From: an uncultured Gemmatimonadaceae bacterium
GTDB lineage: Bacteria > Gemmatimonadota > Gemmatimonadetes > Gemmatimonadales > Gemmatimonadaceae
Direction of reading: 5' to 3'
Assembly (NCBI GenBank): GCA_963781585.1
Contig: CAWAGQ010000007.1
Coordinates: forward strand, 386,253-450,252
Length of the DNA stretch: 64,000 nt
This document shows, in pieces, positions 3,999-38,051 of this stretch. How positions within the stretch are numbered: the stretch's first letter is position 1; each line of letters opens with the position of its first letter. A program made the position numbers and the translations under genes. The notes under the pieces are model-generated. The model searched no databases. It saw only the letters and a program-made list of their open reading frames with translations, and was not told where the DNA came from.

Positions 3999-3999
3999 T

Positions 4000-5778: not shown

Positions 5779-6719
5779 ATCTGTTCGCGACAGTTCTCAC
5801 CTATCCCGCACCCTCCGCCAACTATCGTGGCGAAAGTGAACTGAACAGGACGGTCATCCAAAAGGTGACCGACGGCCGTTTCGACTATCCGATCATCTCA
5901 CCAGAAGCGATGCGCAACGCGCTCCGGGAGATTCTCAGCGGCTATGGGCTGAAGATGAATCGCACACGTCTACACGACGAGGAGCAACTGGCCGTGCGGT
6001 TCGAAGCCTACCCAGATCCGGCCACGTACGCCGACGATTTCCTCTTCGGCTATCTCGTTGCCGCCACCGGTGCTCAACGAAAGCAAATCCTCGAGGAGAT
6101 GAAGAAGACGAACCGGAACGGATTCACTTTCAAGCGCGACAGTATTCTCCGGATGAACCTGGCCAAGGGCTTGGAACCTTATCGCCACAACGCCGTGTTC
6201 ACGCAGTCGCCGCTCAGCGTCGAGAGCAGCGCGTACCAAAACGCGACGACGTCCGCGCTTCTACACCGAGAGACGGCAGTTACCGCTTTTCAGTATCCCT
6301 TCGCGCTCAACATCAACGACTGCAAGACCAAGTCCGACTGGGCAAAGAAGCTGTTGAAGGCCATCGGGGAGCTGAACGGCGTCGCGGGCAACCACGCCCG
6401 CAGCTACTTCGAGATGGCGCCCGCGAGCATCATCGTTCGGTTCACCGATCAACTTGTGGCCGGATACAACACCTATGGATTTCAGGTCGAGCGCAAAAGC
6501 GGCGTGCCGGAGGATACACACCGCTTGCCGGAAATCGTCGACGAGCTGCTCCGAGATGACTCGATCTTCCCCGGCGATGAGTTCTACATCGGCGGAATGA
6601 TTGTTCGACAAATGCGCAACGATGATCAGGAAAGACTCAAATCGAAGGGTGTGACACTCGATCGCGATCCGCGCCGACTGCTCGCGACCGTAGCCGAAGC
6701 GGCCCTCGGCGGCTCATAA
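5775..6719 (+). CDS. cas7: Cas7 backbone subunit (DevR/Csh2-like)
   Basis: ATGA overlap with cas8. The N-terminus is LTYPAPSANYRGESELNRTVIQK..ISPEAMRNALRE, and size (314 aa) and position are typical of type I-B/MYXAN Cas7. Confidence 0.88.
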   Translation: MNLFATVLTYPAPSANYRGESELNRTVIQKVTDGRFDYPIISPEAMRNALREILSGYGLKMNRTRLHDEEQLAVRFEAYPDPATYADDFLFGYLVAATGAQRKQILEEMKKTNRNGFTFKRDSILRMNLAKGLEPYRHNAVFTQSPLSVESSAYQNATTSALLHRETAVTAFQYPFALNINDCKTKSDWAKKLLKAIGELNGVAGNHARSYFEMAPASIIVRFTDQLVAGYNTYGFQVERKSGVPEDTHRLPEIVDELLRDDSIFPGDEFYIGGMIVRQMRNDDQERLKSKGVTLDRDPRRLLATVAEAALGGS

Positions 6720-7444
6720 TGCTTCAGCTCTGCGTGGAGGCTCCGTTCGCCGCCTTTCGGACGTTCACCGCCGGCTGGTACCGGCCGACGGCCTCGTTCA
6801 TCACGCCGTCGGCTGCGTACGGCTTGCTTCTCAATATCGCTGGTATCGAGTCGCGCCTTTGCGAGCACGATCCTGGCCACGGTGGACGCATGCCGGCCAG
6901 CCTCACTAGGCCTGGCCTTCCCTCATGTCGGATTGCCGTCGGTCTACCGGAGGGCGCGGAGCCACCTCGCACTCAATCGCTCTTCCAGCAGCTGCACAAT
7001 TATCCCGTTGGAACCCAAGCCGGGATGCCCTGGGAGATCTCCAAGGGGTCCAAGAACAACGTCACCCCGGTCCGCCGAGAGGTGCTCGTGAACCTGCGCG
7101 CAGTTCTCGCCGTCGATGCACCCCCCGACGGAGACCTCGAGAGCCGGATCATTCGCGGCCTACGGGGCGAGCTCAATGACGACCGATATGGACTGCCATT
7201 CGTCGGCGACAACAACTTTCTCATTGACCAGCTACGAGTCATCGGCGTAGCGCGCCCGGTCAGATGGTACGCGCGAATCGAGTCTACTGACCGACAGGGC
7301 CCGCGACCCGGGGTCACGCGACTCACAACGCATGTCGACCGGGCCGATATGTCTGGTACTCGCTCCGCATTGTACGCGCCCGTCGAGCAGGTCACCATCG
7401 AACCGCCTGACGCCGCATGGACGCAAGTCGGACCCGCGGCATGA
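6719..7444 (+). CDS. cas5: Cas5 (DevS-like)
   Basis: TAATG overlap with cas7. The N-terminal motif LCVEAPFAAFRTFTAGWYRPT..ITPSAAYGLLLNIAG is the classic Cas5 N-terminal signature. Confidence 0.85.
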   Translation: MLQLCVEAPFAAFRTFTAGWYRPTASFITPSAAYGLLLNIAGIESRLCEHDPGHGGRMPASLTRPGLPSCRIAVGLPEGAEPPRTQSLFQQLHNYPVGTQAGMPWEISKGSKNNVTPVRREVLVNLRAVLAVDAPPDGDLESRIIRGLRGELNDDRYGLPFVGDNNFLIDQLRVIGVARPVRWYARIESTDRQGPRPGVTRLTTHVDRADMSGTRSALYAPVEQVTIEPPDAAWTQVGPAA

Positions 7445-7497
7445 TCCCGAGATGAGGGCCGCCGAGCTCCGGGTGCTGATCACATCTGAGTTCTCAC

Positions 7498-9153
7498 ATG
7501 CCTGAACGGCTGCCGACGATGGAGGAGCCCATCCGGGTGATGGCGCTCCACGCACTCCTCTACTGTGAGCGTCTGTTCTATCTCGAGGAGGTCGAAGAGA
7601 TTCGCGTGGCCGACGCTGCCGTATACGCAGGCCGCGAGTTGCATGAGGCACTCGAGGCGGCGGAGGGAGAGAGCGTCGAATCGCTCGAGCTCCAGCACCC
7701 AACGCTCGGCCTCTTCGGCAAGATCGACGCGCTCAAACGGCGCGACGGCAGTTATGTGCCGTACGAGCACAAGCGCGGGCGCTGTCGTCGTGACGATGAC
7801 AACGTACCCTCGGCATGGCCATCCGATCTGGTTCAGGCGGCCGCGTACGGGATGATGCTGGAAGAAACGCTTGGCCGACCCGTGCCGGAAGCGCGAGTCC
7901 GGTATCATGCTGACAACGTCACCGTGCGTATCCCGCTCAACGAATATGCCCGCATGGAAGTCCGGACAGCCGTCGAGCGCGCGCGACTACTGCGGCGAAC
8001 TGTCGAACGCCCGCCGATCGCCGAGAACGAGAAGCTCTGTCGACGATGCTCGCTGGCGCCGGTGTGCTTGCCTGAAGAGGTTCGGCAGGATGCAGATCCG
8101 TCTCACCTGCCGGCGCGCCTCTTCCCGCCGGATGATCAGCGAGGAACGCTGCACGTTGTTTCCGAGGGAGCGAGCGTGGGCCGCTCGGGCGATCGCCTCG
8201 TCGTGCGGCCGCGCGATGGATCGGCGTCATCCCATCCCAGCCGAGAGCTGGCCGCCGTGGTGCTGCACAGCTTCGCGCAGATCAGCACGCAGGCCATCCG
8301 CCTGTGCTGCGACAACGACATCGCGGTACACTGGCTAACGGCGAGCGGCGGACACATCGCATCGCTCACCTCATCCGTTGGCCAGGTCCAGCGTCGTATT
8401 CGGCAGTACAAGGCCCTGGCCGACCCCGCCACTTGCCTGCGACTGGCGAGAACGCTCGCCCATGCGAGGATCGAGGGTCAGCACCGCTACTTGCTGCGCG
8501 CCACGCGCGGCAGCGCGGAGGCACGCGCGACTGTCGATCCGCAGCTCGTCGCGATCGCCGCTCGTCTCGGATCGCTCAATGCTGCATCCGACATCGACTC
8601 CGTACGCGGCCACGAAGGAGAGGCCGCGGTTCACTACTTCGCCTCGCTCAACACACTCCTGTCACCCACCGTGCCCGAGGCACTTCGGTACGCCGGCCGC
8701 ACGCGTCGACCGCCGCTGGATCGGTTCAGCGCCATCCTGAACTTCGGCTACGGACTGCTGCAGACAGCAGTTATGCGGGCTATCCTTGCCGTGGGGCTGG
8801 AGCCGGCGCTGGGATTCTATCACACACCTCGCTCTGCGGCGCACCCGCTGGTGCTGGACCTGATGGAGCTGTTCCGTGTCCCCCTCTGGGATTTGGTGAC
8901 GATCGGATCGCTAAATCGAGGGCAATGGGATCCTGATGAAGATTTCGCTGTTACGAAGACCAAGGTCTGGCTGTCGAACGAAGGCCGAAGGAAGGCGATC
9001 GAGCTCTTCGAGCTCCGTCTTCAGGAGACTTGGAAGCACCCGGTGGTCAATTACTCACTATCCTATCTGCGGACTATCGAGCTGGAGGCGCGGCTTCTGG
9101 AAAAGGAGTGGTCCGGCGAGCCGGGACTGTTCGCCAGGCTGCGTTTACGGTAG
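7498..9153 (+). CDS. cas4/cas1: Cas4-Cas1 fusion protein
   Basis: The N-terminal Cas4 part has LLYCERLFYLEE (first Cys), a D..YEHKRGR RecB-type motif and the CRRCSLAPVC cysteine cluster. The C-terminal Cas1 part has GHEGEAAVHYF, NFGYGLL and LGFYHTPRSAAHPLVLDLMELFR. Length is 551 aa. Confidence 0.95.
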   Translation: MPERLPTMEEPIRVMALHALLYCERLFYLEEVEEIRVADAAVYAGRELHEALEAAEGESVESLELQHPTLGLFGKIDALKRRDGSYVPYEHKRGRCRRDDDNVPSAWPSDLVQAAAYGMMLEETLGRPVPEARVRYHADNVTVRIPLNEYARMEVRTAVERARLLRRTVERPPIAENEKLCRRCSLAPVCLPEEVRQDADPSHLPARLFPPDDQRGTLHVVSEGASVGRSGDRLVVRPRDGSASSHPSRELAAVVLHSFAQISTQAIRLCCDNDIAVHWLTASGGHIASLTSSVGQVQRRIRQYKALADPATCLRLARTLAHARIEGQHRYLLRATRGSAEARATVDPQLVAIAARLGSLNAASDIDSVRGHEGEAAVHYFASLNTLLSPTVPEALRYAGRTRRPPLDRFSAILNFGYGLLQTAVMRAILAVGLEPALGFYHTPRSAAHPLVLDLMELFRVPLWDLVTIGSLNRGQWDPDEDFAVTKTKVWLSNEGRRKAIELFELRLQETWKHPVVNYSLSYLRTIELEARLLEKEWSGEPGLFARLRLR

Positions 9154-9247
9154 CGGCCGAGTGCGGGGCAGGGTTTTCGGCTGCCAGCGAGCCCCGTTCC
9201 CGAGTTTCTCGGCACTGACCAGCGGTGACCGCGAATAGGAGAACGCA

Positions 9248-9550
9248 ATGTCCGCTGACGCAAAATGGTATCTGGTGTGCTATGACGTCCGGAATCCGCG
9301 ACGCTTGCGTAAGGCGGCCAAGCATCTCGAGGGCTATGGTGAGCGGATGCAATATTCGGTGTTCAGGTGCTGGCTCGGTCGCGCACAGCTGGAGCGGCTT
9401 CGATGGGAGCTGACGCAGCTCCTGGCGTCAGAGGACGACGTCTTGTTCATCCCGCTTTGCTCCCGCTGTGTGGCCGGGCTCGCGGTCACGCACACGGCGA
9501 GCAAGCGCCCGCACTGGCCGACGGCGCCGGCGTCGCACAAGCTCGTTTGA
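9248..9550 (+). CDS. cas2: Cas2
   Basis: 100 aa with WYLVCYDV..NPRRLRKAAKHLEGYGERMQYSVFRC, a typical Cas2 beta1-alpha1-beta2 pattern. AGGAG lies upstream of the ATG. Confidence 0.9.
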   Translation: MSADAKWYLVCYDVRNPRRLRKAAKHLEGYGERMQYSVFRCWLGRAQLERLRWELTQLLASEDDVLFIPLCSRCVAGLAVTHTASKRPHWPTAPASHKLV

Positions 9551-9833
9551 GGAATGGGACTGAGCCGCTGCCGTTCGCGACGCGATCAAGCTTCTTTGGC
9601 TGTACGCACCCCATGGGGGATACATCTGCCGCTAAACTTCGAGGAGAGTGCACCTTCCGACCGTCGGGCGCTTCCGCTGGTACGTGACTGCTGTAACTCC
9701 TCCAGTGGTCTCGTCTTCCGATGCCGAGTGGTGCGCCTTGCCACCAATTCGGGGCAGGGCCAAGGCGTGGGCGCGGGGAGCGTGACTCTGTGCGTCGCAA
9801 ACGATGCTCTGGCAATGGTTTCGTCCTCGGGCA
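9551..9833 (+). promoter_or_regulatory. Putative CRISPR leader
   Basis: 283-bp non-coding stretch between cas2 and the first repeat. The degenerate repeat is at the opposite end of the array. The last 8 nt of the repeat (TTGAGCAC) loosely resemble type I 5'-handle ends in this orientation. Confidence 0.55.
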
Positions 9834-12800
9834 GTGATTCCTTCTTCGATGCCGTCAGGCGTTGAGCACACGTGCTCGCAGACACGGCGACTGGCACCCG
9901 CGGTCGCGGCGAGTGATTCCTTCTTCGATGCCGTCAGGCGTTGAGCACTGCCGATCGGACGCTGCTGATCATCGCGTGACACGATCCGGCCGTGTGATTC
10001 CTTCTTCGATGCCGTCAGGCGTTGAGCACATGAACGACGACCTGATTCCGCGCACGAAGCACGAAGTGATTCCTTCTTCGATGCCGTCAGGCGTTGAGCA
10101 CCCGCAACTGATGCGACACGACGAGCTTCTCCAGCTCCTGTGATTCCTTCTTCGATGCCGTCAGGCGTTGAGCACGCTTCTCGTGCGCGGGCTCTATCCG
10201 CTGGTTCAGTGTGATTCCTTCTTCGATGCCGTCAGGCGTTGAGCACTCCGAGCGCAGGAACCACCCATCCGCCTGGAGCGCGAAGTGATTCCTTCTTCGA
10301 TGCCGTCAGGCGTTGAGCACCAGCCACAAACGGCTCTGCTCTTGCCGGACACGAGGGCGTGATTCCTTCTTCGATGCCGTCAGGCGTTGAGCACTGAGGA
10401 GCGAATCGGGGGACGCCCGAGCGACAAGGAGTGATTCCTTCTTCGATGCCGTCAGGCGTTGAGCACATTCGGGCGGGGGCGCAGTTGCAGAGCGGGAAGA
10501 GTGATTCCTTCTTCGATGCCGTCAGGCGTTGAGCACCCGTGCGAGGCCGCGATGAACTCCTTCCCGACTTTCGTGATTCCTTCTTCGATGCCGTCAGGCG
10601 TTGAGCACGTCCAGGCGCTTACGGATCGCGGCATCGCCTGCGAGTGATTCCTTCTTCGATGCCGTCAGGCGTTGAGCACATTTCGCCGGAGCCGTCCAGC
10701 GTGAAGAAGCAGGGTGATTCCTTCTTCGATGCCGTCAGGCGTTGAGCACAGTATCCTCGCGACCGCCTCCGGCGCGTATGCCCGGTGATTCCTTCTTCGA
10801 TGCCGTCAGGCGTTGAGCACTGAGCACGCCCCAGCCGCTGATCCACGAGGAGCACGGTGATTCCTTCTTCGATGCCGTCAGGCGTTGAGCACTGGCTGGC
10901 GCGTGATGGGCATTGCCGTCACCGCGGCCCGTGATTCCTTCTTCGATGCCGTCAGGCGTTGAGCACAGATTCGACGGGATCAGGGAATCGACATGCTGCG
11001 CCGGGGAGTGATTCCTTCTTCGATGCCGTCAGGCGTTGAGCACAGCACCGTGCAGTTGTCGTGATCGCCGCCAACGCGTGATTCCTTCTTCGATGCCGTC
11101 AGGCGTTGAGCACCCCGTGGATGCTGACCAGCGACTCTGGCGGGCGCGGTGATTCCTTCTTCGATGCCGTCAGGCGTTGAGCACTTGCGGCCTTGATCGC
11201 GGTGAGCGTCAGGCTGCCGTGATTCCTTCTTCGATGCCGTCAGGCGTTGAGCACATCTTCGCCTGGTCCTCTTTCGTCGCGGTCGCATATAGTGATTCCT
11301 TCTTCGATGCCGTCAGGCGTTGAGCACCGCCGCTGGAATCGGGGACCGACGTGATCTGCTGGTAGGAGTGATTCCTTCTTCGATGCCGTCAGGCGTTGAG
11401 CACGCGACGTGGAACTGGATGCTTGGAAGTGCACCTACGCGAGTGATTCCTTCTTCGATGCCGTCAGGCGTTGAGCACTCCTCGAAGGGTTGCGGATCGC
11501 GCAACCCGCCCGTGTGATTCCTTCTTCGATGCCGTCAGGCGTTGAGCACCCGCGTGCGTCATGATTGCCCCACACCGCATACTGAGTGATTCCTTCTTCG
11601 ATGCCGTCAGGCGTTGAGCACTGCGCGCGGATCTCGGGGCTGCGTCGTCCCGGCTGTGATTCCTTCTTCGATGCCGTCAGGCGTTGAGCACAAAACGACT
11701 CCGAAAGACCGCCTCGCCCAGCTGTGCGTGATTCCTTCTTCGATGCCGTCAGGCGTTGAGCACTCACTAATCACACGCGCGCACACCATGACTCTCATCG
11801 TGATTCCTTCTTCGATGCCGTCAGGCGTTGAGCACTTAAAGTTCGCCAGCGATTGCAGTGTGACGCGATGAGTGTGATTCCTTCTTCGATGCCGTCAGGC
11901 GTTGAGCACTGCACTACGGCCTCACGCCGGGCATCCCGGGCGGCTAGTGATTCCTTCTTCGATGCCGTCAGGCGTTGAGCACTGCATCGTGAGCGGCACT
12001 TCGGCGGTCACGAGCGTGTGATTCCTTCTTCGATGCCGTCAGGCGTTGAGCACAGCACGATGTTGCTCGCGACCCACGCCCACGCCGCCGTGATTCCTTC
12101 TTCGATGCCGTCAGGCGTTGAGCACTACAGACCGCCCAGCTCATCCGTGGACCACTTGATGTGATTCCTTCTTCGATGCCGTCAGGCGTTGAGCACTCGG
12201 CTGTCGAGCACATGAGGCGCTCGGCCTAGCGTGATTCCTTCTTCGATGCCGTCAGGCGTTGAGCACTGTAACGGAGGGTGATCCTGTATTGCGGGGATGG
12301 GGGTGATTCCTTCTTCGATGCCGTCAGGCGTTGAGCACCGGTCGTATGGCGCCGAGTGGGATGCGGCGTTGGGGAGTGATTCCTTCTTCGATGCCGTCAG
12401 GCGTTGAGCACACGATTTGACGGTCAATATAACGCTTACGATCGTTGTGATTCCTTCTTCGATGCCGTCAGGCGTTGAGCACTGTGGGACGGCAGTAATC
12501 GCGTCGGACAGCTGGACGTGATTCCTTCTTCGATGCCGTCAGGCGTTGAGCACACGGCTCTCAAGGAGACGTGCTTGAATCATGCCCGTGATTCCTTCTT
12601 CGATGCCGTCAGGCGTTGAGCACTCCTTGCCGCGACGTTGGCCACGGCCGGGGTGCAGGTGATTCCTTCTTCGATGCCGTCAGGCGTTGAGCACACCGGT
12701 ACGACCACCGCGGCATCGCGGGGTCCGCCAGGTGATTCCTTCTTCGATGCCGTCAGGCGTTGAGCACCAGACCGCGGCGGGGACGGAGACCGCGGGCGCG

Positions 12801-15414
12801 GGTGATTCCTTCTTCGATGCCGTCAGGCGTTGAGCACGAGGATACGGGACCAATCCCGGCGCGAGCGGTACGTGATTCCTTCTTCGATGCCGTCAGGCGT
12901 TGAGCACTCATCATTGCGGTGGCGTCCGGTCATCCTCTCCGGTGATTCCTTCTTCGATGCCGTCAGGCGTTGAGCACTCCTCGCTTACTACCACCGCGCT
13001 CGCCGCCGGCGGGTGATTCCTTCTTCGATGCCGTCAGGCGTTGAGCACGGAAGCGTTCTGTGGCTTTCATAAGCCCATCAAGTGATTCCTTCTTCGATGC
13101 CGTCAGGCGTTGAGCACACTCGGTAGGCTCATCTGGCGTTCCTCGTCTCGATGTGATTCCTTCTTCGATGCCGTCAGGCGTTGAGCACCCGAAGTGCCCT
13201 TCTTCTACGACGGGCGCTACAAGTGATTCCTTCTTCGATGCCGTCAGGCGTTGAGCACTTCATGGACGCCGACCACCCGCGATGGGGCGCGCAGTGTGAT
13301 TCCTTCTTCGATGCCGTCAGGCGTTGAGCACATCCCGCCGGCCTCCGCAACCGTCACGGTCGCCGCGGCTGTCAGGTGATTCCTTCTTCGATGCCGTCAG
13401 GCGTTGAGCACTGGTTCCCGCAGATTTCCCTGAACAGGAACGACAGGTGATTCCTTCTTCGATGCCGTCAGGCGTTGAGCACTCAGCGGCGACATCATCC
13501 TCAACCTCGGGGGCCTGGTGATTCCTTCTTCGATGCCGTCAGGCGTTGAGCACGTTGACTGCCACACACTCGGCACCGTCGTACACGGTGGTGATTCCTT
13601 CTTCGATGCCGTCAGGCGTTGAGCACGTACAGACTACTGCAAAGGCTGGTAGGGGAAAGGGTGATTCCTTCTTCGATGCCGTCAGGCGTTGAGCACTTCT
13701 GCGGCAGAGAGCATCGTCAGGGACGATGCGGCGTGATTCCTTCTTCGATGCCGTCAGGCGTTGAGCACATCGTTTCCCCGTCCGTGGCGGCAGCGTAGCC
13801 GAAGAACGTGATTCCTTCTTCGATGCCGTCAGGCGTTGAGCACTTCAAGAGCCCGGAAGAATTTCGGCTGTCGGTCTGTGATTCCTTCTTCGATGCCGTC
13901 AGGCGTTGAGCACCGGTCGAACCGGAAGGACGGTTCGTCAGGGCGCCGAGTGATTCCTTCTTCGATGCCGTCAGGCGTTGAGCACCGGCGGTGAAGGCCA
14001 TGGCACCGAGCGCGGCCAGGATGTGATTCCTTCTTCGATGCCGTCAGGCGTTGAGCACGTGACTGGATTGGAGCATCGGCTGGCGAGGATAGCGTGATTC
14101 CTTCTTCGATGCCGTCAGGCGTTGAGCACAAGTTCGGGAGGGGGGTTCCGCTGTCAACCTTCGGGTGATTCCTTCTTCGATGCCGTCAGGCGTTGAGCAC
14201 AGGGCGGCACGCTTCACACGGACCTCCGACTCTGTGATTCCTTCTTCGATGCCGTCAGGCGTTGAGCACGAGACATCGCGCCGTTGGCCACGATTGAGCG
14301 GCTGTATGTGATTCCTTCTTCGATGCCGTCAGGCGTTGAGCACCCGTCAATGGCCGCGCAGAGCGCCTCGTCCAGCACGTGATTCCTTCTTCGATGCCGT
14401 CAGGCGTTGAGCACGTACTCGAAGTCGAGAATGAGCCCGCCCGACTTCGTGATTCCTTCTTCGATGCCGTCAGGCGTTGAGCACCCGGGGAGTATCGCCG
14501 CCACTTCCGCAATCGGCGGACGTGATTCCTTCTTCGATGCCGTCAGGCGTTGAGCACTTGGTCAGCACCGCGGTCGCGGTGGGGAGTACGCGCGTGATTC
14601 CTTCTTCGATGCCGTCAGGCGTTGAGCACTGGAGTCGGGACAAGAATCTGGTGACGGTGAAGCGTGATTCCTTCTTCGATGCCGTCAGGCGTTGAGCACT
14701 CCTCGCCGTCGATCCCCTTGTCGCTAATCCACGCGTGATTCCTTCTTCGATGCCGTCAGGCGTTGAGCACATGCCGTGGGCGCGGCGTTGGGAGCAACGG
14801 ATCAAGTGATTCCTTCTTCGATGCCGTCAGGCGTTGAGCACTATCCCGACATTTTCGTCGCACCGAAGGTGGCAAGGTGATTCCTTCTTCGATGCCGTCA
14901 GGCGTTGAGCACATACTCGAGGCTGAGGGGCGCGGTAAACCGATCCAGCAGTGATTCCTTCTTCGATGCCGTCAGGCGTTGAGCACATTCGGTACGCGGT
15001 GAAGGCGGAGCAAGTCGCGCGGTGATTCCTTCTTCGATGCCGTCAGGCGTTGAGCACTCGTCCGACGTGACCTGGCCGTCAAAGGACGGATACAGTGATT
15101 CCTTCTTCGATGCCGTCAGGCGTTGAGCACACCACGGTGCTGGTTGCCGGAAGGAACTTCCGAAGTGATTCCTTCTTCGATGCCGTCAGGCGTTGAGCAC
15201 TCCTCGTAGCCGAGTCAGTCATCGCTTCGGCTCCTGTGATTCCTTCTTCGATGCCGTCAGGCGTTGAGCACACGGTCTTTCTGATGGATTTCTTGCAGCG
15301 CTCGCGTGATTCCTTCTTCGATGCCGTCAGGCGTTGAGCACGACATGAAGTTCGGCGGTGTCCCCGAGAGCTCCGTGCGTGATTCCTTCTTCGATGCCTT
15401 AAGACGTTGAGCAC
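9834..15414 (+). CRISPR. CRISPR array, 78 repeats of 36 bp, 77 spacers
   Basis: I located every copy of GTGATTCCTTCTTCGATGCCGTCAGGCGTTGAGCAC by hand, from 9834-9869 to 15379-15414. Repeat-to-repeat period is 69-81 bp, so spacers are 33-45 nt with a mode of 34-36. The last repeat has 3 substitutions (..GATGCCTTAAGACGTT..). Confidence 0.99.
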
Positions 15415-27899: not shown

Positions 27900-28442
27900 T
27901 CACGATCGGGGTGTCTCGTGATCCGTGAGCACGGGCAGATACGTCACCCACGGGCCAACCGCATCCCGGTACTGCTTCGCCATCACCCGCGCCACCTGGG
28001 CGATGTGCCCCAGGTCGTGAACGACCCACGCGGCCACGAGCTGGCGGAGCGTGACCGGACCCAGTCCCGGATGCTGCCCGGGCAGGTCGAGGGTCGCGGC
28101 GGTCAGATCCCAGGACCGGAGCAGCACGAGGTTGCGCTCGCGCAGATCGGCGAACTCCGCGAGCAGCGCTTCCAGCGTGCGTCCCATGTTACGCGTCCGA
28201 TGTCGGAAGCGGTCGTAGGGCTCGAATCGCGGATCGGGCCCCTTTGCCAGGATGATCCGCGCTCGCGGAATCCAGTCGGTCTCTTCACCATCGATCAGGT
28301 GACCGACCACATCGAACGCGCTGAAGGTGTCGGGTCCCTCGGTACCCCGAGCCCACGCCGCGTCGACGCCGTCGAGAAGCGCCCGCAGAGTGGCCGGCGT
28401 CCGTGCGAGGATGTCGAGGGAGAGATCGACGCTGAATTCCAT
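27900..28442 (-). CDS. DinB family protein
   Basis: Start at MEFSVDLSLDIL (ATG 28442). It has a DinB-like His triad context (VVGHLIDGEE.., VVHDLGHIAQV). Confidence 0.8.
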   Translation of the reverse strand: MEFSVDLSLDILARTPATLRALLDGVDAAWARGTEGPDTFSAFDVVGHLIDGEETDWIPRARIILAKGPDPRFEPYDRFRHRTRNMGRTLEALLAEFADLRERNLVLLRSWDLTAATLDLPGQHPGLGPVTLRQLVAAWVVHDLGHIAQVARVMAKQYRDAVGPWVTYLPVLTDHETPRS

Positions 28443-29441: not shown

Positions 29442-30626
29442 TCAGAAGATCGCGATCGGCACCGAAACGCCGCTCGCGAACTTGTTGCTCTTCAGTCCCG
29501 AGAGCTTGCCGGCGTTGAAGGTGACGATGCCGTAATGCTCGTCGCTGATCCGGTTGGCGGTGATCACCGTGTGGGGGATCGGAATCACCGCGCTGAACAC
29601 GCTGATGGCCGTGGGCGCGTCGTCGACCGGATTGTCGTCGTCGATTCCGTTGCCGGACAGCGTGTTGTTGGTGAGGACGTTCTGATCCACGTACTGCGCC
29701 GGCGTGTGGCTGTGGATCATCAGGCCGGCGAAGCCGTTGTTCATCGCGGTGTTGCCGGAGACCGTGTTCCCCCACGCTGCCGCGCCCGGCGGCCCGGCGA
29801 AGACGCCGATCCCGGCGGCGCCGTTGCCGTTCGAGGTATTGTGCAGAATGGTGTTGCGATACACACCCGCCACGTCGGGTGACGCGGCTGCCACCGGGTC
29901 GAACCAGTGGGACGCGAGCGTGATGCCGCAATCCAGCGTGTTGTCGAGCACCGTGTTGTCGCTGATCATGTTCCCGAAGGTCGGACCATCCTCGTCCGTC
30001 AGCAGGATGCCGCCGATGTTGTTCTGGACCAGATTGCCGCGAACGGTCGAGTGGGTGACACTCTGCAGGTGGATCGCCTCGCCGCAGTCGTCCGGCTGCG
30101 CCGCGCACAGCGGATTGAACGGACCATAGGTGTCATTGGCGACCACCGAGTTGTCCTCGATCGTGATGCGCGTCGTCTGCACGACGAAGATGCCTTCGAG
30201 CCCAGCGTTGGTGACGGTGAATCCCGTGACGATCGTGCCCGCGGCGTCGGGTCCCGAAATCACTATCCCGTTCGGAGGCGACGACTGACCGGACGCATCG
30301 ATCGTCGCGTCATGACCCACGAGCCTCAGCCGTTTGCTGATGCTGACGGACTCCAGGTACGTCCCTGACGCGACCGAGACCACATCGCCCGCGCCCGCCT
30401 GACTGACGGCGTAATTGATCGTCTGGCATGGCGTCGCACTGCAGTCGCCGGCATCCGTTCCCGTGGGGGACACGGTCCGGTCGGGCGTCCCCAGCCGTTG
30501 GAGCGCTGCCACATCGGGCGCGAGTGGGGATGGCACCGAATCGGTGCATGCGGCCGCAAAGGCCACCAGAACAAGTAGAGTGGGGAAAACTGATGAGGAC
30601 GGCGCACTTCGCCGTGGACCGGACAT
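29442..30626 (-). CDS. Right-handed parallel beta-helix repeat lipoprotein
   Basis: ATG at 30626 with GGAGGA upstream. The lipobox is LVLVAFAAAC. It has repeated ..N.I.GN.. beta-helix turns (VTNAGLEGIFV, VRGNLVQNNIGGILL, ISDNTVLDNT, VSGNTAMNNGFAGLMI). Confidence 0.75.
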   Translation of the reverse strand: MSGPRRSAPSSSVFPTLLVLVAFAAACTDSVPSPLAPDVAALQRLGTPDRTVSPTGTDAGDCSATPCQTINYAVSQAGAGDVVSVASGTYLESVSISKRLRLVGHDATIDASGQSSPPNGIVISGPDAAGTIVTGFTVTNAGLEGIFVVQTTRITIEDNSVVANDTYGPFNPLCAAQPDDCGEAIHLQSVTHSTVRGNLVQNNIGGILLTDEDGPTFGNMISDNTVLDNTLDCGITLASHWFDPVAAASPDVAGVYRNTILHNTSNGNGAAGIGVFAGPPGAAAWGNTVSGNTAMNNGFAGLMIHSHTPAQYVDQNVLTNNTLSGNGIDDDNPVDDAPTAISVFSAVIPIPHTVITANRISDEHYGIVTFNAGKLSGLKSNKFASGVSVPIAIF

Positions 30627-30720
30627 GACTTCCTCCTTGTGGGAGACTGAAAGGTCCCGGGGGAACAGCACATGTAGCGTGTGTTGATGTCCACCACAAG
30701 AGCGGTACAGCGCGGAGTGA

Positions 30721-30860
30721 GTGAAGGAGGCCGTGTTGCGCACGGGAATCGTCAAGCGCGTAAGCTGTCACACCGTTCGGCACGCTTTCGCGACGCAGCT
30801 TCTGGAGAACGGGCACGACATCCGGACCGTGCAGAGGAGCTGTTGGGGCACGCGGACCTG
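30721..30860 (+). pseudogene. C-terminal remnant of a tyrosine recombinase, IntI-like box II region, frameshifted
   Basis: The frame reads [37 protein letters not shown]. After 2 extra nt (AG, 30835-30836) it continues as ELLGHADL in another frame. The H-x-x-R-H..F.A....G.DIRTVQELLGH pattern is the conserved box II. The first 250 or so codons and the catalytic Tyr region are missing. Confidence 0.7.
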
Positions 30861-31309
30861 GCGCCCGCGGTCGCCGCGGCGCCGCGCGGTGCCGCGCGGT
30901 GCCGCAGGACGAGGGAGTGGCACGCCGATCGAGGCGACTGGTCGGGCGGCCTCGCCGGGGACGTGTCGCTCGTCCGGAGTACTGGTGACGGGGCCCGGAC
31001 GGGAGTAACGTCTGGTGTCGGTACGCGCGCGCCGGAGGGGTTGCCGATTGGCCTTGGGCATTCGCGTTGTGTCTTCGCAGCGACTGATCGCCGAGGGCAT
31101 TGCCAGTCGCGAGCTGGTTGAGGCGACGGACGCGACTTCCGCTGGGTAGTGTGGGATTGGCTCGAACGCCACTATGGGTTTGGACCGTTCCCGTCCAGCG
31201 CAATCCTGGTGGTTGTTCCCAAATTGCCAGCTCGGCCGCTCCGACTCATTCCGGTGGCGGTCGAGTGTGCGTTAGCGAGACTGGCAGGTATTGCTTTCAG
31301 GGCGGCTGC

Positions 31310-31326
31310 GTCATACGTTGTCATAC
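31310..31326 (+). promoter_or_regulatory. Direct repeat GTCATAC-N3-GTCATAC abutting the vapB start codon (candidate RHH operator)
   Basis: GTCATAC occurs at 31310-31316 and at 31320-31326, with the ATG at 31327. The 10-bp phasing is typical of ribbon-helix-helix operators. Confidence 0.3.
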
Positions 31327-31545
31327 ATGAAAGATGCCGTCACGATTCGCTTGGATCGAGATCTCGCCCGCCGACTGGCCCGCGTCAGTAAACGCCTCGG
31401 CCGCACGCAAAGTGACGTGGTGCGCGACGCCCTCCGCCGGCAGCTCGCGCTCCTGCAGTTCGAGGACCTGCGTCGCCGCGTCGCGCCCTTTGCGGAAGCG
31501 GCGGGATACCTTACCGACGAGGACGTATTCCGCGACGTGTCGTGA
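31327..31545 (+). CDS. vapB: Ribbon-helix-helix (CopG/VapB-type) antitoxin
   Basis: MKDAVTIRLDRDLARRLARVSKRLGRTQSDVVRDALRRQL is a classic RHH N-terminus. A 4-nt overlap (GTGA) joins it to the PIN gene. Confidence 0.75.
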   Translation: MKDAVTIRLDRDLARRLARVSKRLGRTQSDVVRDALRRQLALLQFEDLRRRVAPFAEAAGYLTDEDVFRDVS

Positions 31546-31949
31546 GGGTGCTCCTCGATACCAACGTCCTTGCCAGTGCGATTGCGACCCGAGGCCTCTG
31601 CGCGGACCTCTTTCGGCTGGTTGTCGCCGAGCACGAGTTCGTTGTTGGCGAGGTGGTGCTCGATGAGCTGGGTCGCGTGTTGCGAAGGAAGTTTCGCCTG
31701 CCCACGGAGCGCATCGCGGAAGTTGAAGACTTTCTTCGGCAACATGAGGTCGCCGCGCGCCCCGACGCGCCCGATCCGGTCTCCGTGCGCGATGCAGACG
31801 ACCAATGGATCCTGGCCACTGCCCGCGCCGCGCACGTGAATGCACTAATCACGGGCGATGACGATCTCCTCGCCGTTGCTGGGCCATTGCCCTTTCGGAT
31901 TCTGTCGCCGCGGGCGTTTTGGGATGAGCTTCGAAGCGACGCTCGCTAA
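31542..31949 (+). CDS. vapC: PIN-domain toxin
   Basis: The N-terminus is VLLDTNVLASAI (first acidic residue), followed by ..DELGRVL.., DADDQWILATA and LITGDDDLL. The four acidic positions of a PIN fold are present. Confidence 0.85.
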   Translation: MRVLLDTNVLASAIATRGLCADLFRLVVAEHEFVVGEVVLDELGRVLRRKFRLPTERIAEVEDFLRQHEVAARPDAPDPVSVRDADDQWILATARAAHVNALITGDDDLLAVAGPLPFRILSPRAFWDELRSDAR

Positions 31950-32051
31950 CGGAGCAATGAACCTGTCAGCCGACGCTGCGGACGGCGCCGGCGCGCTGCG
32001 CGCGCTGGCGCTTTGTTGTGATTCGGCTGCAGGTTATTGCTGGCGTTGGAC
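31944..32051 (+). other. attC-like recombination site (108 bp imperfect palindrome)
   Basis: The 5' box CGCTAAC (31944-31950) overlaps the vapC stop codon. The stem pairs AGCAAT[G]AACCTG[T]CAGCCG (31953-31972) with CGGCTGCAGGTTATTGCT (32024-32041), 18 bp with two single-base bulges on the 5' arm. An internal loop is followed by an apical 12-bp GC stem (about 31985-32011). The 3' box GTTGGAC (32045-32051) fits GTTRRRY. Confidence 0.45.
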
Positions 32052-32086
32052 GCAGATTCAACCTTCCTTCGCCAATCGGACTTGGA

Positions 32087-32656
32087 ATGACGCAAGGTGA
32101 AGCCAAGTGGGCAGACCAGTTCCATCACATCGCAGCCGCGACAGACCAAGGTATGCATGCGCTGCAGGACGTCACCAGCTGGATCTCGCGCTACGTCGTG
32201 GCAGACGATGTCCTACCGCGCGTGGATCCACCGCGGCAGATCGCACCGGCGATTGAGGCGGTCCGCACGGCCTTCGAGGAGATTCGGCGCGCCCGCTCTG
32301 ATGCCTTCGAGCGATTTGTTGCAGCACCCCTTGACAGGCTCGTTCGCGGCTTCGAGCTAACAGCGGAGCAGTATTATTTGCTCAGTGCCATGGGCGCCAT
32401 TCGCGGCACTGCGAAGGACCTCGGCCTTTCACCCGTTGACGATTTCGAGGCTTTCGCTCTCCTTCATTACGACGACGATGAGTGGGAAGGCTACATCAAT
32501 CCTTCGCTGGAACCGCGTGATCTAGGTAGCGGCAAGGCAGGCTTTCGGTTTGGCCGATCGCCCGAAGAGGTGCCACGCGCACGACTCCGCCCGGAGCAAT
32601 CGGAGTTCTTCAGGCAATACCTTCCCGAAGTCTTCAGCAGATTTCGTGAAGATTGA
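32087..32656 (+). CDS. Hypothetical protein (acidic, no recognisable domain)
   Basis: Start chosen at MTQGEAKW, 36 nt after the GTTGGAC box. GC content looks locally lower than the flanks. No motif was recognised. Confidence 0.5.
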   Translation: MTQGEAKWADQFHHIAAATDQGMHALQDVTSWISRYVVADDVLPRVDPPRQIAPAIEAVRTAFEEIRRARSDAFERFVAAPLDRLVRGFELTAEQYYLLSAMGAIRGTAKDLGLSPVDDFEAFALLHYDDDEWEGYINPSLEPRDLGSGKAGFRFGRSPEEVPRARLRPEQSEFFRQYLPEVFSRFRED

Positions 32657-32899
32657 CTCCGGGGCACTGGCGTCTAAGGATGGTTTGCAGCAGACAGCGG
32701 GACCTGCGGAGCGCGCGGCGGGGGCTGCGCTCCCGCCGCACGACTGCTATGAGATCTCCGCTGCAGCTGAAACCAGTAGCCGTACACCTTTGTCCTTTCA
32801 CGAGCCCCCATAGCAAACCAGCCAACGAAATGCTTGGGGCCTCAGGGATGCAGGCGGTCATCGCTTGCTCGAAGCTGATCTCCGGGCCAGATTCCCATC

Positions 32900-33163
32900 A
32901 TGGTCCGTCCTGCGGTCAACATCGACCAACTTACCGCCGAAGAGCGCTTCGAACTCATCGAGCGCCTCTGGGACTCGCTTCGCGTGCGGCCCGGCGGCTT
33001 TCCCCTGGCGCCCGCCGAGCGAGAGATCATCGAGGCCCGTCGAGCGGCGCACCGCCATGACCCGTCGACTGCCGTCGACTGGGAGAGCGTCCAGTCAGAG
33101 CTCGCGGTGGATCAGGACGCGGACGATCAGGCCGACCCGGGCCACGCGCGCCGACGGAGCTGA
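32900..33163 (+). CDS. Putative addiction-module antitoxin (TIGR02574-like)
   Basis: LTAEERFELIERLWDSL....PL..AEREIIEARRAAHRHDP is the typical motif of the small addiction-module component paired with ParE/RelE toxins. Confidence 0.75.
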   Translation: MVRPAVNIDQLTAEERFELIERLWDSLRVRPGGFPLAPAEREIIEARRAAHRHDPSTAVDWESVQSELAVDQDADDQADPGHARRRS

Positions 33164-33169
33164 CCCGCC

Positions 33170-33475
33170 GTGCGCGTTCGGTTTCGGCCGGAGGCGCGCA
33201 CGGAGATCCGAGAGGCACGCCGGTGGTATGAGAGTCAGGTCCAGGGCCTCGGCCGCGCGTTCCTCGGGGAACTTGAGGCGACGATCACGGTGATGCGCAT
33301 CTTTCCGCAGATGCACCGCGCGCTGACCGACGAGGGGAAAGTCCGGCGCGCACTTCTTCGCCGGTTTCCTTACAGCCTTGTTTACGAGATTTTCGACAAC
33401 GAGATCATAGTTCTCGCGTGTCGGCACATGCACCAGGAGGATGTCGACTGGAGCATCGAGCGCCGTGACGGCTAG
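33170..33475 (+). CDS. ParE/RelE-family toxin
   Basis: GTG start 6 nt after the antitoxin stop. The sequence is RFRPEARTEIREARRWYESQ..GLGRAFLGELEATI..I..FP.....RRALLRRFPYSLVYEI.DNEIIVLAC.H, the plasmid-stabilisation toxin pattern. Confidence 0.8.
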   Translation: MRVRFRPEARTEIREARRWYESQVQGLGRAFLGELEATITVMRIFPQMHRALTDEGKVRRALLRRFPYSLVYEIFDNEIIVLACRHMHQEDVDWSIERRDG

Positions 33476-33482
33476 CGACGGA

Positions 33483-34208
33483 ATGGAGCTGGCAGCGCTT
33501 GGTGGCGGAAGCGGCGTGCTCGCGGTGCTCGCCCGCCGCCATTATGATGACGCGCTGCAGATCATGACAACTGCTGATGATCCGTTGGCCGGTCGGTCCC
33601 GAACCAGTCACGAGCGACTGGCAGGTCGGCCCTGGGACGCATCGTACCAGGACGGGCCCCCGCCTTGGGACATCGGCGAGCCGCAGCCAGCAGTAGTGCG
33701 GTTGGCATCCAAAGGCCGATTTGCCGGGGCAGTACTCGATGCGGGCTGCGGAACTGGCGAGAACGCTCTTTACCTCGCTTCCCTGGGAGTGAATGTCCTT
33801 GGTGTTGACGTGGCTGAAACGGCCCTGGCCATCGCCCGACAGAAAGCCAGCGACCGAGGAGTCGAGATGGAGTTTCTGCCGGCTGACGCGCTACACCTGG
33901 CAGACTTGGGGCGCATGTTTGAGACGGTACTGGACTGCGGACTATTCCACACCTTCGACGCCGACGAGCGGACGCACTACGTGGCGAGCCTGGCTTCTGT
34001 GACCAAGCACGGTGGATCTCTATATCTGTTGTGCTTCAGGGACGAGGGTCCGGATGCCGGCCCGCACCCGATCAGTCGGCAGGAGTTGAGAGCTGCGTTC
34101 AACCCCAGCCATGAATGGGAGATAGCTGCCGTCGAATCGGATCGGCTTCGGACGCGCATTCACGCCGACGGGGCACCGGCTTGGCTCACCACCATCAAGC
34201 GAACGTAG
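33483..34208 (+). CDS. Class I SAM-dependent methyltransferase
   Basis: Motif I is VLDAGCGTGENALYLASLG, with post-I VLGVDVAE and later ..FETVLDCGLFH. The start is uncertain: ATG 33483, ATG 33564 or TTG 33585 are all in frame. Confidence 0.8.
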   Translation: MELAALGGGSGVLAVLARRHYDDALQIMTTADDPLAGRSRTSHERLAGRPWDASYQDGPPPWDIGEPQPAVVRLASKGRFAGAVLDAGCGTGENALYLASLGVNVLGVDVAETALAIARQKASDRGVEMEFLPADALHLADLGRMFETVLDCGLFHTFDADERTHYVASLASVTKHGGSLYLLCFRDEGPDAGPHPISRQELRAAFNPSHEWEIAAVESDRLRTRIHADGAPAWLTTIKRT

Positions 34209-34297
34209 ACTCCGAAACGGGCAAGTTCACAGAGTGCCCCGTGCGGTCAGTGTGTGGTGCATCGGTGGCAACGGCGGCCTCGGCCGCCTAACGTTGT

Positions 34298-34993
34298 ATG
34301 CACCAGACGGTCGGGGCTTCGGATTGGCTGCGGCTGCGCCGCCGACTTTCATTTGATCCGCCGCAGGTGATGCTTGGCGATGGGTCCGCCATAGTGGCAC
34401 AAATGTATTGGCGCCGCCAGGAGCTGCCCGCGGCGGAAGTGGGGGAGATCGACGAGACGCAGCTCCCGCCGGGCGCCTACGCTGTCGCGGCGGAGCTGCG
34501 CGATGCCGACTTCGCCGCAATTGAACAAGACGGCTATGCTACCCGACTTCATCCGTCTGTGGGTACCACACCAGAGTACGGCGGACTTTACTTCTACTGG
34601 AGCTATCCGCCGCTCCATCGCGATTTGAGCGAGCATTTCCTGCAAACCAGTTTTGCCAACAAGCACACCTTCGGATTGTCTCGCCAGCCCGATGGCTCTT
34701 TTGCTCTGTCCTTCTGTGGTCGAAACCACGCGCGCCCGTACCTTGAAGGAACACTCTCGATAGCAGTCGATACGTCACTGGTGAGCGCTCAGTGGACATT
34801 CATCACTCCGCGGCCTGCTGAGAGTGCGGGGGGAGAAGTGACCTTCCTCGCTCCTGGCCAAACGCTTCTGCCGTGGTCTCTTGTGCCGCTTCGCAGCGCG
34901 TTCTGGCGCCGGATTGGAGGCTCGCGCACCTTGTACTTCCAGGAATCGTCAGTGTATCGCGAATGGCGAGTCGGCCCAGGCATTTGGCCATAG
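34298..34993 (+). CDS. Hypothetical protein
   Basis: 231-aa ORF with no recognisable domain. The annotated ATG sits inside an 82-nt palindrome (34236-34317), so the true start may be downstream (for example the Met at 34370). Confidence 0.45.
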   Translation: MHQTVGASDWLRLRRRLSFDPPQVMLGDGSAIVAQMYWRRQELPAAEVGEIDETQLPPGAYAVAAELRDADFAAIEQDGYATRLHPSVGTTPEYGGLYFYWSYPPLHRDLSEHFLQTSFANKHTFGLSRQPDGSFALSFCGRNHARPYLEGTLSIAVDTSLVSAQWTFITPRPAESAGGEVTFLAPGQTLLPWSLVPLRSAFWRRIGGSRTLYFQESSVYREWRVGPGIWP

Positions 34994-35109
34994 GGGATCT
35001 CCGAGCTGAACGGCCGGAGAAATCGCTGACGAAAATAGTCCAGGCACATCGCTAACACTGCCACACTAGGGCACCGAGGAGGTGCCCGATGCCAAGATGC
35101 GCGGGTGTG

Positions 35110-36330
35110 CTACGGTCGCGCGCGCCGGAAGAGCGCGAGGTCGACAGCCTCCGCCATCGCCCGGTATCCAGCGTCGCTCGGGTGAAGGTGGTCCCCCGAA
35201 TCGAATGCAGCGAGGAAGCGGTCCGGCTGCGCGGGATCGCGAGTCGCGGCATCGAAGTCGATCACGCCGTCGAACATCCCGCTGGTGCGAATCCACTCGT
35301 TCACCGCGCGCCGCTTCAGGTCCACGGCCGCGACCGTGGGACGGTTCATGCCTCCGATGGGCGTGAGCGTCGCGCCATAGATACGGAGTCCCCGCTCGTG
35401 CGCCCTGGCGATGAGCTGCTCGTAACCGAACACAATGTCGTCGGCACTCACCGAGTCGCGGGGATCGGGGGTTCCCGTTCCGCGAAAGAGATCGTTGATG
35501 CCCTCGAGCACCACGACGTGGGTCACGCCCGGTTGCATGAGTACGTCGCGATCGAATCGGGCCAGCGCGCTGGGCCCGGTCCCGGGCGCGAGCACGCGAT
35601 TGCCGCCGATGCCGGCGTTGACCACCGCCTTGGGTGGTTCGGTCGACGCCAGAAGACGACGCGCCAGCGCGTTGGGCCAGCGGCTGTTGGCATCCACGGT
35701 TGAGCCGGTCCCGTCGGTGATCGAGTTGCCGAAGGCGACGACGACTCCGGTTGCGGCGGGGTTAGTGACGTCGACACCCGCCAGCCAGAGCCACTGCCGG
35801 ATGGTGGTGTCAGGCGTGAGGCTGGCCGCGGAAGTGAAATCCCCGTGTGCGGAGAGATAGTTCGTCTGGTAGGCGCCCGCATGGCGTGTGGTCGCACGGA
35901 TCGTGTCCTTCAACCAGAGGCTCACCGCCAGATCGCTCACCGGGGACACGGTCAGGCGCACCGGATCGCTTGTCACGACGGCGCCCGGACCCAGCGTCAC
36001 GGTAGCGCGTCCACCGAAGGTGATCGCTCTATCGGTGGCTGCGCGGATCGCTGGCCCGGAGTCGCGCACCGCGATGTGCGCCGCGCCGATGACGAGCGCA
36101 CGCTCGCCGTTCTCATTGGTAAGCCGAATGCGCACGCTGTCGCCGCCGAGTGATGTGCGCACGATCTGGCGAATGGTGCGGTCGGCGTACGTCGGCACGC
36201 GATCGAGCGAGTCGCGCGGCGGTGCGGGCGGAGCGGCGAAGTACGACGGGGACCACGTTGCCAGCCAGTGCGCGGGCGGTTGCGCATGGAGCGGCGCAAC
36301 GGCGAAGGCGACGAGCAGGAGTTGGCGCAT
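35110..36330 (-). CDS. SGNH/GDSL-type hydrolase, secreted
   Basis: Signal peptide MRQLLLVAFAVAPLHAQ. SGNH blocks are present: VVAFGNSITDG, GIGGNRV, VVVLEGINDL and DHLHPSDAGY. Confidence 0.85.
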   Translation of the reverse strand: MRQLLLVAFAVAPLHAQPPAHWLATWSPSYFAAPPAPPRDSLDRVPTYADRTIRQIVRTSLGGDSVRIRLTNENGERALVIGAAHIAVRDSGPAIRAATDRAITFGGRATVTLGPGAVVTSDPVRLTVSPVSDLAVSLWLKDTIRATTRHAGAYQTNYLSAHGDFTSAASLTPDTTIRQWLWLAGVDVTNPAATGVVVAFGNSITDGTGSTVDANSRWPNALARRLLASTEPPKAVVNAGIGGNRVLAPGTGPSALARFDRDVLMQPGVTHVVVLEGINDLFRGTGTPDPRDSVSADDIVFGYEQLIARAHERGLRIYGATLTPIGGMNRPTVAAVDLKRRAVNEWIRTSGMFDGVIDFDAATRDPAQPDRFLAAFDSGDHLHPSDAGYRAMAEAVDLALFRRARP

Positions 36331-37420: not shown

Positions 37421-37975
37421 ATGTCAGCCAGCAGCACTGCAGGTATCGACGTGACCACCCGCGGAGGGGCCCCCTCGTGGTCCGAAGGCAGAGAGAAGCA
37501 GCGTGCCGAAGCCCTAGCGGTTCGCCTCGAACAGGGGGCCCGCGCACTGGCCGCGTTCGCGAGCGGGCTCAACGACGCGGACTGGCAGACTCGCGTTCCC
37601 AAGGACGGTCGCAAGATCGGGGTTCTGGTCCACCATGTGGCCACCATGTACCCCTTGGAGATCACCCTCGCGCAGACGCTCGCCGACGGCAAGCCGATAA
37701 CGGGCGTGACCTGGGACGACGTCCACGCGTTGAACGCGCAGCACGCGAAGGACTTCGACGCGGTCACGAAGGAGGTGGCCCTCGACCTGCTCGAGCGCAA
37801 CAGCGCGGCCGCGGCCGCGGCGGTGAGGGCGCTGAGCGACGAGCAGCTCGATCTTGCCGCGCCGGTGTCGCTCAACTCCGGCGCACCGCTCACTTGTCAG
37901 TTCTTCGTCGAAGATCACGCACTGCGGCACAGCTATCACCACTTCGCGAGCATCCGGAGGGTGTTGAATCGGTAG
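37421..37975 (+). CDS. DinB-family protein
   Basis: GGAGG lies upstream of the ATG. It has helical-bundle His positions (VLVHHVATMY, HALRHSYHHFASI). Confidence 0.7.
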   Translation: MSASSTAGIDVTTRGGAPSWSEGREKQRAEALAVRLEQGARALAAFASGLNDADWQTRVPKDGRKIGVLVHHVATMYPLEITLAQTLADGKPITGVTWDDVHALNAQHAKDFDAVTKEVALDLLERNSAAAAAAVRALSDEQLDLAAPVSLNSGAPLTCQFFVEDHALRHSYHHFASIRRVLNR

Positions 37976-38051
37976 GGCCGGGTGCCTGACGACAGCATGA
38001 GGCCGCGGCGCGCGCGGGCAGCGCAGCTCGGCCCATGCAGCGCTGGGACGT

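Follow-up and report, generated by a model that had tools for sequence, protein, structure and literature searches.

The 64,000-nt stretch of contig CAWAGQ010000007.1 (positions 386,253 to 450,252 of the forward strand) from an uncultured Gemmatimonadaceae bacterium, hereafter referred to as the window, very probably contains a decaying sedentary chromosomal integron. In the terms of IntegronFinder, the locus is a CALIN, i.e. a cluster of attC sites lacking an integrase, accompanied by a nearby pseudogene of the integron integrase gene intI. The surviving parts appear to be a 137-bp intI stump and three, perhaps four, cassettes on the + strand, each of which would be closed by an attC site beginning at or just past a stop codon; the putative cargo comprises, in this order, vapBC, a hypothetical gene, a ParD/ParE-like pair and a methyltransferase gene. 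An integron-like architecture had been proposed in a first-pass annotation, which described an integrase remnant and a vapBC cassette with one attC site. This observation is confirmed and its interpretation is supported by directly observed sequence features, family assignments and a presence/absence polymorphism; the element is larger than first described. Integron relics of this type are well known already, hence, the locus is real but ordinary, without departure from the known kind. The coordinates of all features are listed in Table 1.

A hairpin named attC1 begins at the stop codon of vapC. Its 5' arm consists of the R'' box CGCTAAC, two unpaired bases, a 6-bp stem, a bulged G (G31959), a second 6-bp stem, a bulged T (T31966) and a 7-bp stem, which is followed by an internal loop, a GC-rich apical stem, the bulge-free complementary arm, three unpaired bases and the R' box GTTGGAC. 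The region 31944-32051 was folded as single-stranded DNA and gave an energy of -41.9 kcal/mol (z = -4.6); none of 200 shuffled sequences folds as well, and the opposite strand of attC1 folds similarly. With both strands folded, the palindrome with two bulges on its 5' arm, as annotated earlier, was recovered; counted from the first base of CGCTAAC, the bulges are positions 16 and 23. A gapless inverted-repeat search missed the bulged hairpin, which was detected using a custom fold scan of segments bounded by AAC and GTT. Among the 1282 segments of this kind in the window, attC1 is the only clean single long hairpin in the 40 lowest-energy folds listed. Of the sites in the array, attC1 alone retains both AAC and GTT, and its R' box fully fits the consensus GTTRRRY.

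A search of the window against Rfam at the gathering thresholds gave no match and, therefore, own attC covariance models were built. The first model (R1) was trained on ten attC sites of contig L003 and one of contig L002, i.e. on unrelated arrays from metagenomes, without any sequence of the window; its structure includes the pairing of the R boxes and three stems. L003 is the 15-kb contig of the fourth-ranked database relative of the stump (P0004) and the longest among the top matches. It has an evident cassette array, in which small same-strand genes are situated between bulged hairpins of ~70-80 nt (GCCTAAC...GTTAGGC). A broader model (R2) was built from 22 attC sites, none of which is from the window. 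The best window match of R1 is exactly 31944-32051 on the + strand at full model length with 29.8 bits (E ~4e-5), compared to 10.3 bits for the - strand of attC1. When the filters were switched off, two further + strand sites were found by R1, attC2 with 27.7 bits and attC4 with 22 bits, and the next best score across the 64 kb is 15 bits. With R2, values of 35.5, 24.2 and 33.1 bits were obtained for attC1, attC2 and attC4, respectively, at a noise of ≤ 13.8 bits. Both home-built models place their best match exactly on the hairpin claimed before; the single site of the first-pass annotation is real, but the array has three significant ones.

As controls, an attC site of L003 which had been left out of the training was scored with R1 (29.4 bits), and R2 was applied to two class 1 integrons, in which it finds the 60-bp attC site of aadA2 with 47 bits and that of another cassette with 45 bits, both on the gene strand. 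In the training family, whose alignment was fitted to the model, 90.7% of the cells are paired and 15 of 23 pairs changed on both sides, which is reached by none of 500 shuffles; slid controls gave 23-41% paired cells. The bulges of attC1 fall into those model columns which also contain the bulges of the L003 sites and of the aadA2 attC; their bases are not the usual ones. Thus, the hairpin 31944-32051 is a real attC site and, because its bulges share columns with those of class 1 sites, its geometry is canonical. Recombination of its folded bottom strand by an integron integrase would be predicted. Like the aadA2 site, attC1 shows the order R''-L''-loop-L'-R', AAC and GTT, and extrahelical bases at top-strand positions 16 and 23, and one covariance model aligns both over the full length. 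In contrast to the aadA2 site, attC1 is 108 nt long and has a long GC-rich apical stem and a largely paired R-L spacer. Its bulged bases are G and T in the top strand (bottom strand C and A), whereas those of aadA2 are C and A (bottom strand G and T).

An alternative would be that the hairpin is a mere terminator or a generic palindromic repeat following vapBC, and that the recombinase fragment is left over from an Xer or phage integrase without relation to it. For the hairpin, this would agree with the lack of a matching Rfam family, with an R'' box fitting the consensus only partly and with the apical 13-bp GC stem (31984-32012), which together with the following TTTGTTGT (31984-32021) was flagged as intrinsic-terminator-like. 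However, the outer 18-bp bulged stem, the AAC and GTT boxes and the strand asymmetry (29.8 versus 10.3 bits) cannot be accounted for by a terminator, and neither can the two additional significant same-strand matches after neighbouring genes or the homologous attC sites behind vapC relatives described below. The IntI-type best match of the stump is likewise left without an account if the recombinase is unrelated, and terminator-like sites are fewer than the shuffle expectation. A terminator or a coincidence is, thus, largely refuted here and hardly conceivable as the whole explanation. The attC1 site may, in addition to its role as attC, double as the terminator of vapBC.

The genes vapB (RHH antitoxin) and vapC (PIN-domain toxin) overlap by 4 nt (31542-31545), as in a type II VapBC pair. 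In a metagenome search with VapC, the relatives obtained were ≤ 51% identical, which is evidence at the family level. At the loci of these relatives, 18 of 19 R1 matches are on the gene strand. In six of them (L008, L009, L012, L015, L017 and L022), an attC site starts at most ~4 nt from the end of the VapC match, like in the window, and homology to attC1 is evident in five of these sites (L008, L009, L012, L015 and L022). In attC1, the three inner stems (stems 1-3) comprise 19 pairs, all of which are formed. Comparison with the homologous sites revealed four compensated double changes, namely two G-C to A-T and two C-G to A-T; further, attC1 has standard pairs where the relatives show a G-T wobble and a T-C mismatch. 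Since compensated changes are found in homologous attC sites behind vapC relatives, gene and site appear to have co-evolved as a single cassette, with selection maintaining the pairing. The proposal that vapBC is an integron cassette is borne out by these attC-terminated relatives elsewhere. An exact look-up of VapC returned only the Logan contig L001, which is identical to positions 29993-33960 of the window and, hence, uninformative on mobility.

The putative 5' boundary of the vapBC cassette, GTTAGCG, is the exact reverse complement of its R'' box CGCTAAC, as had been noticed in the first-pass annotation. Only two + strand occurrences of the 7-mer exist in the 64 kb, and the probability to encounter it by chance within a few hundred bases upstream of vapB is ~1-2%. 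A cassette which circularised via its own attC is expected to show such complementarity to its R''.

For the recombinase fragment upstream of the cassettes, DNA homology to intI genes of other loci spans 30721-30857 and nothing beyond; thus, the stump is cut at both ends. The IntI-like fragment previously assigned to 30721-30860 is confirmed with this slightly shorter extent and with its frameshift: the frame breaks after ...DIRTVQ by a 1-nt insertion and is continued by ELLGHADL. Besides the ~250 N-terminal codons, the loss of which was already recognized, the stump lacks ~35 codons at the C-terminal end, among them that of the catalytic tyrosine. An intact open reading frame (ORF) with this tyrosine is absent, as the homology ends with ...LLGHADL and does not reach the YTHV motif. 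The NCBIfam scores over the same 49 residues are 73.7 bits for TIGR02249 (integron integrase), 64.5 bits for XerD and 60.4 bits for XerC, whereby the TIGR02249 value, being that of a fragment, is far under the whole-protein cut-off of 265. Pfam PF00589 scores 53 bits, and the identity to residues 261-298 of IntI1 is 58%.

The best 50 database relatives of the stump (P0001-P0050) are all 54-81 amino acids (aa) long. Those inspected (L002, L003, L004-L007) represent the C-terminal ORFs of intI genes with frameshifts or internal deletions and finish in the tail YTHVLxxGxxGVxSPxDxL, which is present in IntI1 too. Reassembly of the 260-aa and 66-aa ORFs of L004 gave a protein of 326 aa, which contains the IntI-specific insert and reaches 446 bits on TIGR02249 (cut-off 265); the integrase of L002 reaches 386 bits. 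The stump is assigned to the integron-integrase lineage by its sequence, because TIGR02249 is its best match and because its relatives have the IntI tail and are above the cut-off when reassembled. By profile score, the stump sides with IntI rather than with Xer, and all refuting tests named in the first-pass annotation turned out in favour of its reading. Broken integrases seem to be frequent in this lineage, to which the choice of candidates by the search may contribute. In L003 (8036-8844), an internal deletion of intI joins ~35 N-terminal codons to the last 77 codons, and the gene sits within the array with attC sites on both sides, one of which is 25 nt past its stop codon. In L006 (1290-3379), the broken intI has as its direct neighbour an IS91-family (Y2) transposase that comes with a tyrosine recombinase of its own; this indicates a possible route of integrase disruption in this lineage.

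The stump shares the orientation of the cassettes, as the first-pass annotation had it, and this is also the case in L002 and L003. Such a layout is the Treponema-like arrangement. An atypical integrase orientation was described for Treponema denticola and its relatives (PMC3607928); unlike there, the phylum here is Gemmatimonadota, the integrase is destroyed and attI is not identifiable. Stump and array are both present as claimed, but they are not contiguous. The spacer between them has no homology to the sequences downstream of intI in L002-L007. The 12-bp inverted repeat reported in the spacer does exist. Its interpretation as a decayed attC or attI was rejected: the fold has z = -1.3 and 19 of 200 shuffles fold as well, no + strand attC-model match was found, and no similarity to the post-intI sequence of other loci was detected.

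Several points weigh against an integron at this locus. Between the integrase stump and the first cassette are 413 bp of unassigned sequence without a recognizable attI, and the IntI-specific extra domain falls in the deleted part of the stump. In attC1, R'' deviates from RYYYAAC at positions 1-2, and the extrahelical bases of the bottom strand are C and A instead of the usual G and T. The attC3 site scores at noise level and attC4 no longer folds. Finally, only one syntenic relative was available, which fits an insertion here or a deletion there alike. The unrelated spacer and the missing attI would also suit a different history, in which the cassettes were inserted at a secondary (non-attI) site by an integrase from elsewhere and the stump arrived separately; off-target insertion is one proposed route to CALINs (PMC4889954, PMC8618304). 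On the other hand, an IntI-type stump is found 414 bp upstream on the same strand, in the orientation known from related intact loci, for which coincidence is unlikely, and stump and array share one indel block. Separate arrival is, therefore, considered very improbable, and a single decaying integron is preferred.

According to the definition of a CALIN, at least two attC sites are situated on one strand, ≤ 4 kb apart, with same-strand ORFs between them. Here, three significant attC sites were found inside 2.4 kb, all on the + strand and each 0-80 nt past a + strand stop codon. The attC2 site still folds (z = -3.9), with AAG and CTT standing where AAC and GTT belong. The attC4 site has a good sequence score and an intact R'', but GAT for GTT and decayed stems (z = +0.7). 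The candidate attC3 was rejected as a significant site, since it is at noise level in both models (R1 11.9 bits, R2 12.3 bits) and has a fold z of -0.6; only its position and strand are in favour. The TAG stop codon of parE falls in its R''-like GGCTAGC box, and its GTTGGCC box would give the next gene an in-frame TTG start. The start of this methyltransferase gene is uncertain: TTG 33585, which is the putative cassette boundary, ATG 33564 or ATG 33441. The hypothetical ORF of cassette 2 (32087-32656) matches no Pfam or NCBIfam family. The last ORF of the region, 34403-34993, has neither a family match nor a recognizable attC after it. A second CGCTAAC, identical to the R'' box of attC1, is located at 35050-35056 (+); both + strand copies are within this element. 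It lies 57 nt past the stop codon of this ORF, with ~45 nt left to the right end of the indel described below. A 7-bp hairpin is all that comes after it, and it is possibly what remains of a terminal attC.

Within the genome collection, the closest relative is L068, a metagenome-assembled genome of a Gemmatimonadaceae bacterium (CAVUFA010000024.1). There, the homologue of 35101-36071 (91% nucleotide identity) is followed ~15 bp on by the homologue of 29439-28258 (86%), i.e. the GDSL gene leads ~15 bp later to the cupin gene homologue. The 5.66-kb segment missing from L068 contains a beta-helix gene, the intI stump, the cassettes and the ORF 34403-34993. No direct repeats were found at the junctions, and 12 kb of L068 contain no attC-model match. 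The beta-helix gene starts directly upstream of the stump in divergent orientation, and the same gene call is found in the Logan contig L001. Concerning the cargo, the first-pass annotation was right for vapBC, the ParD/ParE-like pair and the methyltransferase, but not for DinB and cupin. The cupin gene and the first 72 DinB residues are conserved in L068, which is without the element; hence, these are flanking core genes and were rejected as cassettes. The homology of the window and L068 ends inside DinB after residue 72 (window 27900-28300 versus L068 3273-3524), which is a second variable spot only 1.2 kb from the integron indel. A weak attC-model match at 37984-38049 (~14 bits, noise), 9 nt past the stop codon of a second DinB-family gene (37421-37975), may represent either a terminator hairpin or an attC of great age.

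The segment being polymorphic between close relatives could also indicate a working cassette reservoir, in which an intact IntI encoded elsewhere in the genome reshuffles the cassettes in trans, at least vapBC via attC1. This site is fully paired, with AAC, GTT and both bulges, and could, judged by these features, have remained cleavable by an integrase provided in trans. About half of the CALINs sit in genomes encoding IntI elsewhere, and mobilization in trans has been proposed (PMC4889954). However, the window shows no further integrase-like segment across 64 kb, and the partner sites for an excision are damaged, as nothing folded is present upstream of 31271, attC2 has AAG/CTT and attC4 has GAT. 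We consider such a reservoir rather unlikely. Since the integrase is gone and the cleavage triplets AAC or GTT are lost in attC2 and attC4, we infer that the array of this decaying integron is essentially frozen. The integrase itself is dead and would have been active in the past. Toxin-antitoxin pairs are known to stabilise the integron arrays of Vibrio by penalising loss. By analogy, the two pairs present here probably penalise loss as well and so may help the relic to persist.

The features sort well with known systems. Vibrio superintegrons are a well-known example of sedentary arrays with type II toxin-antitoxin cassettes, and in the degenerate integrons of Xanthomonas the integrases are inactivated while the arrays persist. 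The present locus shares the toxin-antitoxin cassettes in a sedentary array with the former and the inactivated integrase beside a kept array with the latter; it differs from both by its Gemmatimonadaceae host, the very small array and attC sequences which are not uniform. Integrons in Gemmatimonadota have been reported (PMC8618304). CALINs are common, and in 15 of 279 (~5%) a pseudogene of intI was present in the vicinity (PMC4889954; Cury et al. 2016, IntegronFinder). Like those (PMC4889954), the locus carries two or more attC sites inside 4 kb on one strand, no functional integrase, an intI remnant at < 10 kb and cargo of unknown or non-resistance function. In contrast to them, the remnant is only 137 bp long and most attC sites are themselves decaying.

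Table 1. Features of the integron locus and its surroundings (positions in the window).
Feature	Position	Strand	Remarks
Segment missing from the closest relative genome	29440-35100		5.66 kb; comparison with L068
Right-handed beta-helix (NosD/DUF1565-like) secreted protein gene	29442-30626	-	Pfam Beta_helix 70 bits; missing from L068
intI pseudogene stump, box II region	30721-30857	+	137 bp; 1-nt frameshift; truncated on both sides
Unassigned spacer, intI stump to first cassette	30858-31270		contains 12-bp inverted repeat (31161/31254)
GTTAGCG, core-site-like 5' boundary of cassette 1	31271-31277	+	G/TTAGCG; exact reverse complement of R''
Cassette 1 (vapB, vapC, attC1)	31272-32045	+	attC1 intact
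vapB	31327-31545, or from TTG 31291	+	RHH_1 32 bits
vapC	31542-31949	+	PIN_3 51 bits; TIGR00305 46.9 bits, above cut-off
attC1	31944-32051	+	108 nt; R'' CGCTAAC with the TAA stop codon of vapC; R' GTTGGAC at 32045-32051
Cassette 2 (hypothetical ORF 32087-32656, attC2)	32046-32794	+	attC model, fold
attC2	32672-32794	+	R boxes spoiled, GTCTAAG ... CTTTGTC
ParD-like antitoxin, Unstab_antitox family (cassette 3)	32900-33163	+	PF09720/TIGR02574
ParE-family toxin (cassette 3)	33170-33475	+	PF05016
Possible, badly decayed attC3	33470-33590	+	GGCTAGC ... GTTGGCC; noise level
S-adenosylmethionine (SAM)-dependent methyltransferase, TPMT/TehB-like (cassette 4)	33585-34208	+	Methyltransf_25 69 bits; TPMT 50 bits
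attC4	34286-34385	+	R'' GCCTAAC intact; R' spoiled, GATGGGT
Hypothetical ORF	34403-34993, alternative starts 34298 or 34370	+	inside the indel; missing from L068
GDSL/SGNH hydrolase gene	35110-36330		abuts the array

At the GDSL/SGNH hydrolase gene, the attC-model search found no attC in the window, L068 or five further Gemmatimonadaceae/Gemmatimonadales loci. In L072 (Gemmatimonadales UBA4720), a 72%-identical copy forms a textbook cassette (3110-4579), in which the gene (3245-4483) is flanked by attC matches at 3110-3207 and 4488-4579. This may reflect either cassette creation or cassette domestication. It is doubtful, and we would give it a low probability, that the gene has been caught in both states of the cassette life cycle, chromosomal and cassette. 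If the cassette copy in L072 came from a chromosomal gene of Gemmatimonadales and not the reverse, it would be a natural example for the unsolved origin of cassettes.

Apart from the integron, the window (G+C content 65%) contains a complete type I CRISPR-Cas locus at 1620-15345 with Cas3, Cas8b, Cas5, a Cas4-Cas1 fusion and a likely Cas2. The CRISPR array (9833-15345) has ~75 repeats of 36 nt, GTGATTCCTTCTTCGATGCCGTCAGGCGTTGAGCAC. The first 15 kb owe their lower G+C content and AT skew to this CRISPR-Cas locus.

The integron locus does not alter the present knowledge of integrons. It provides a well-resolved record, with exact coordinates, of what is in all likelihood a decaying chromosomal integron in the Gemmatimonadaceae, a soil lineage of an under-studied phylum to which little work has been devoted, and can serve annotation as well as studies on the death of integrons and the CALINs left behind.

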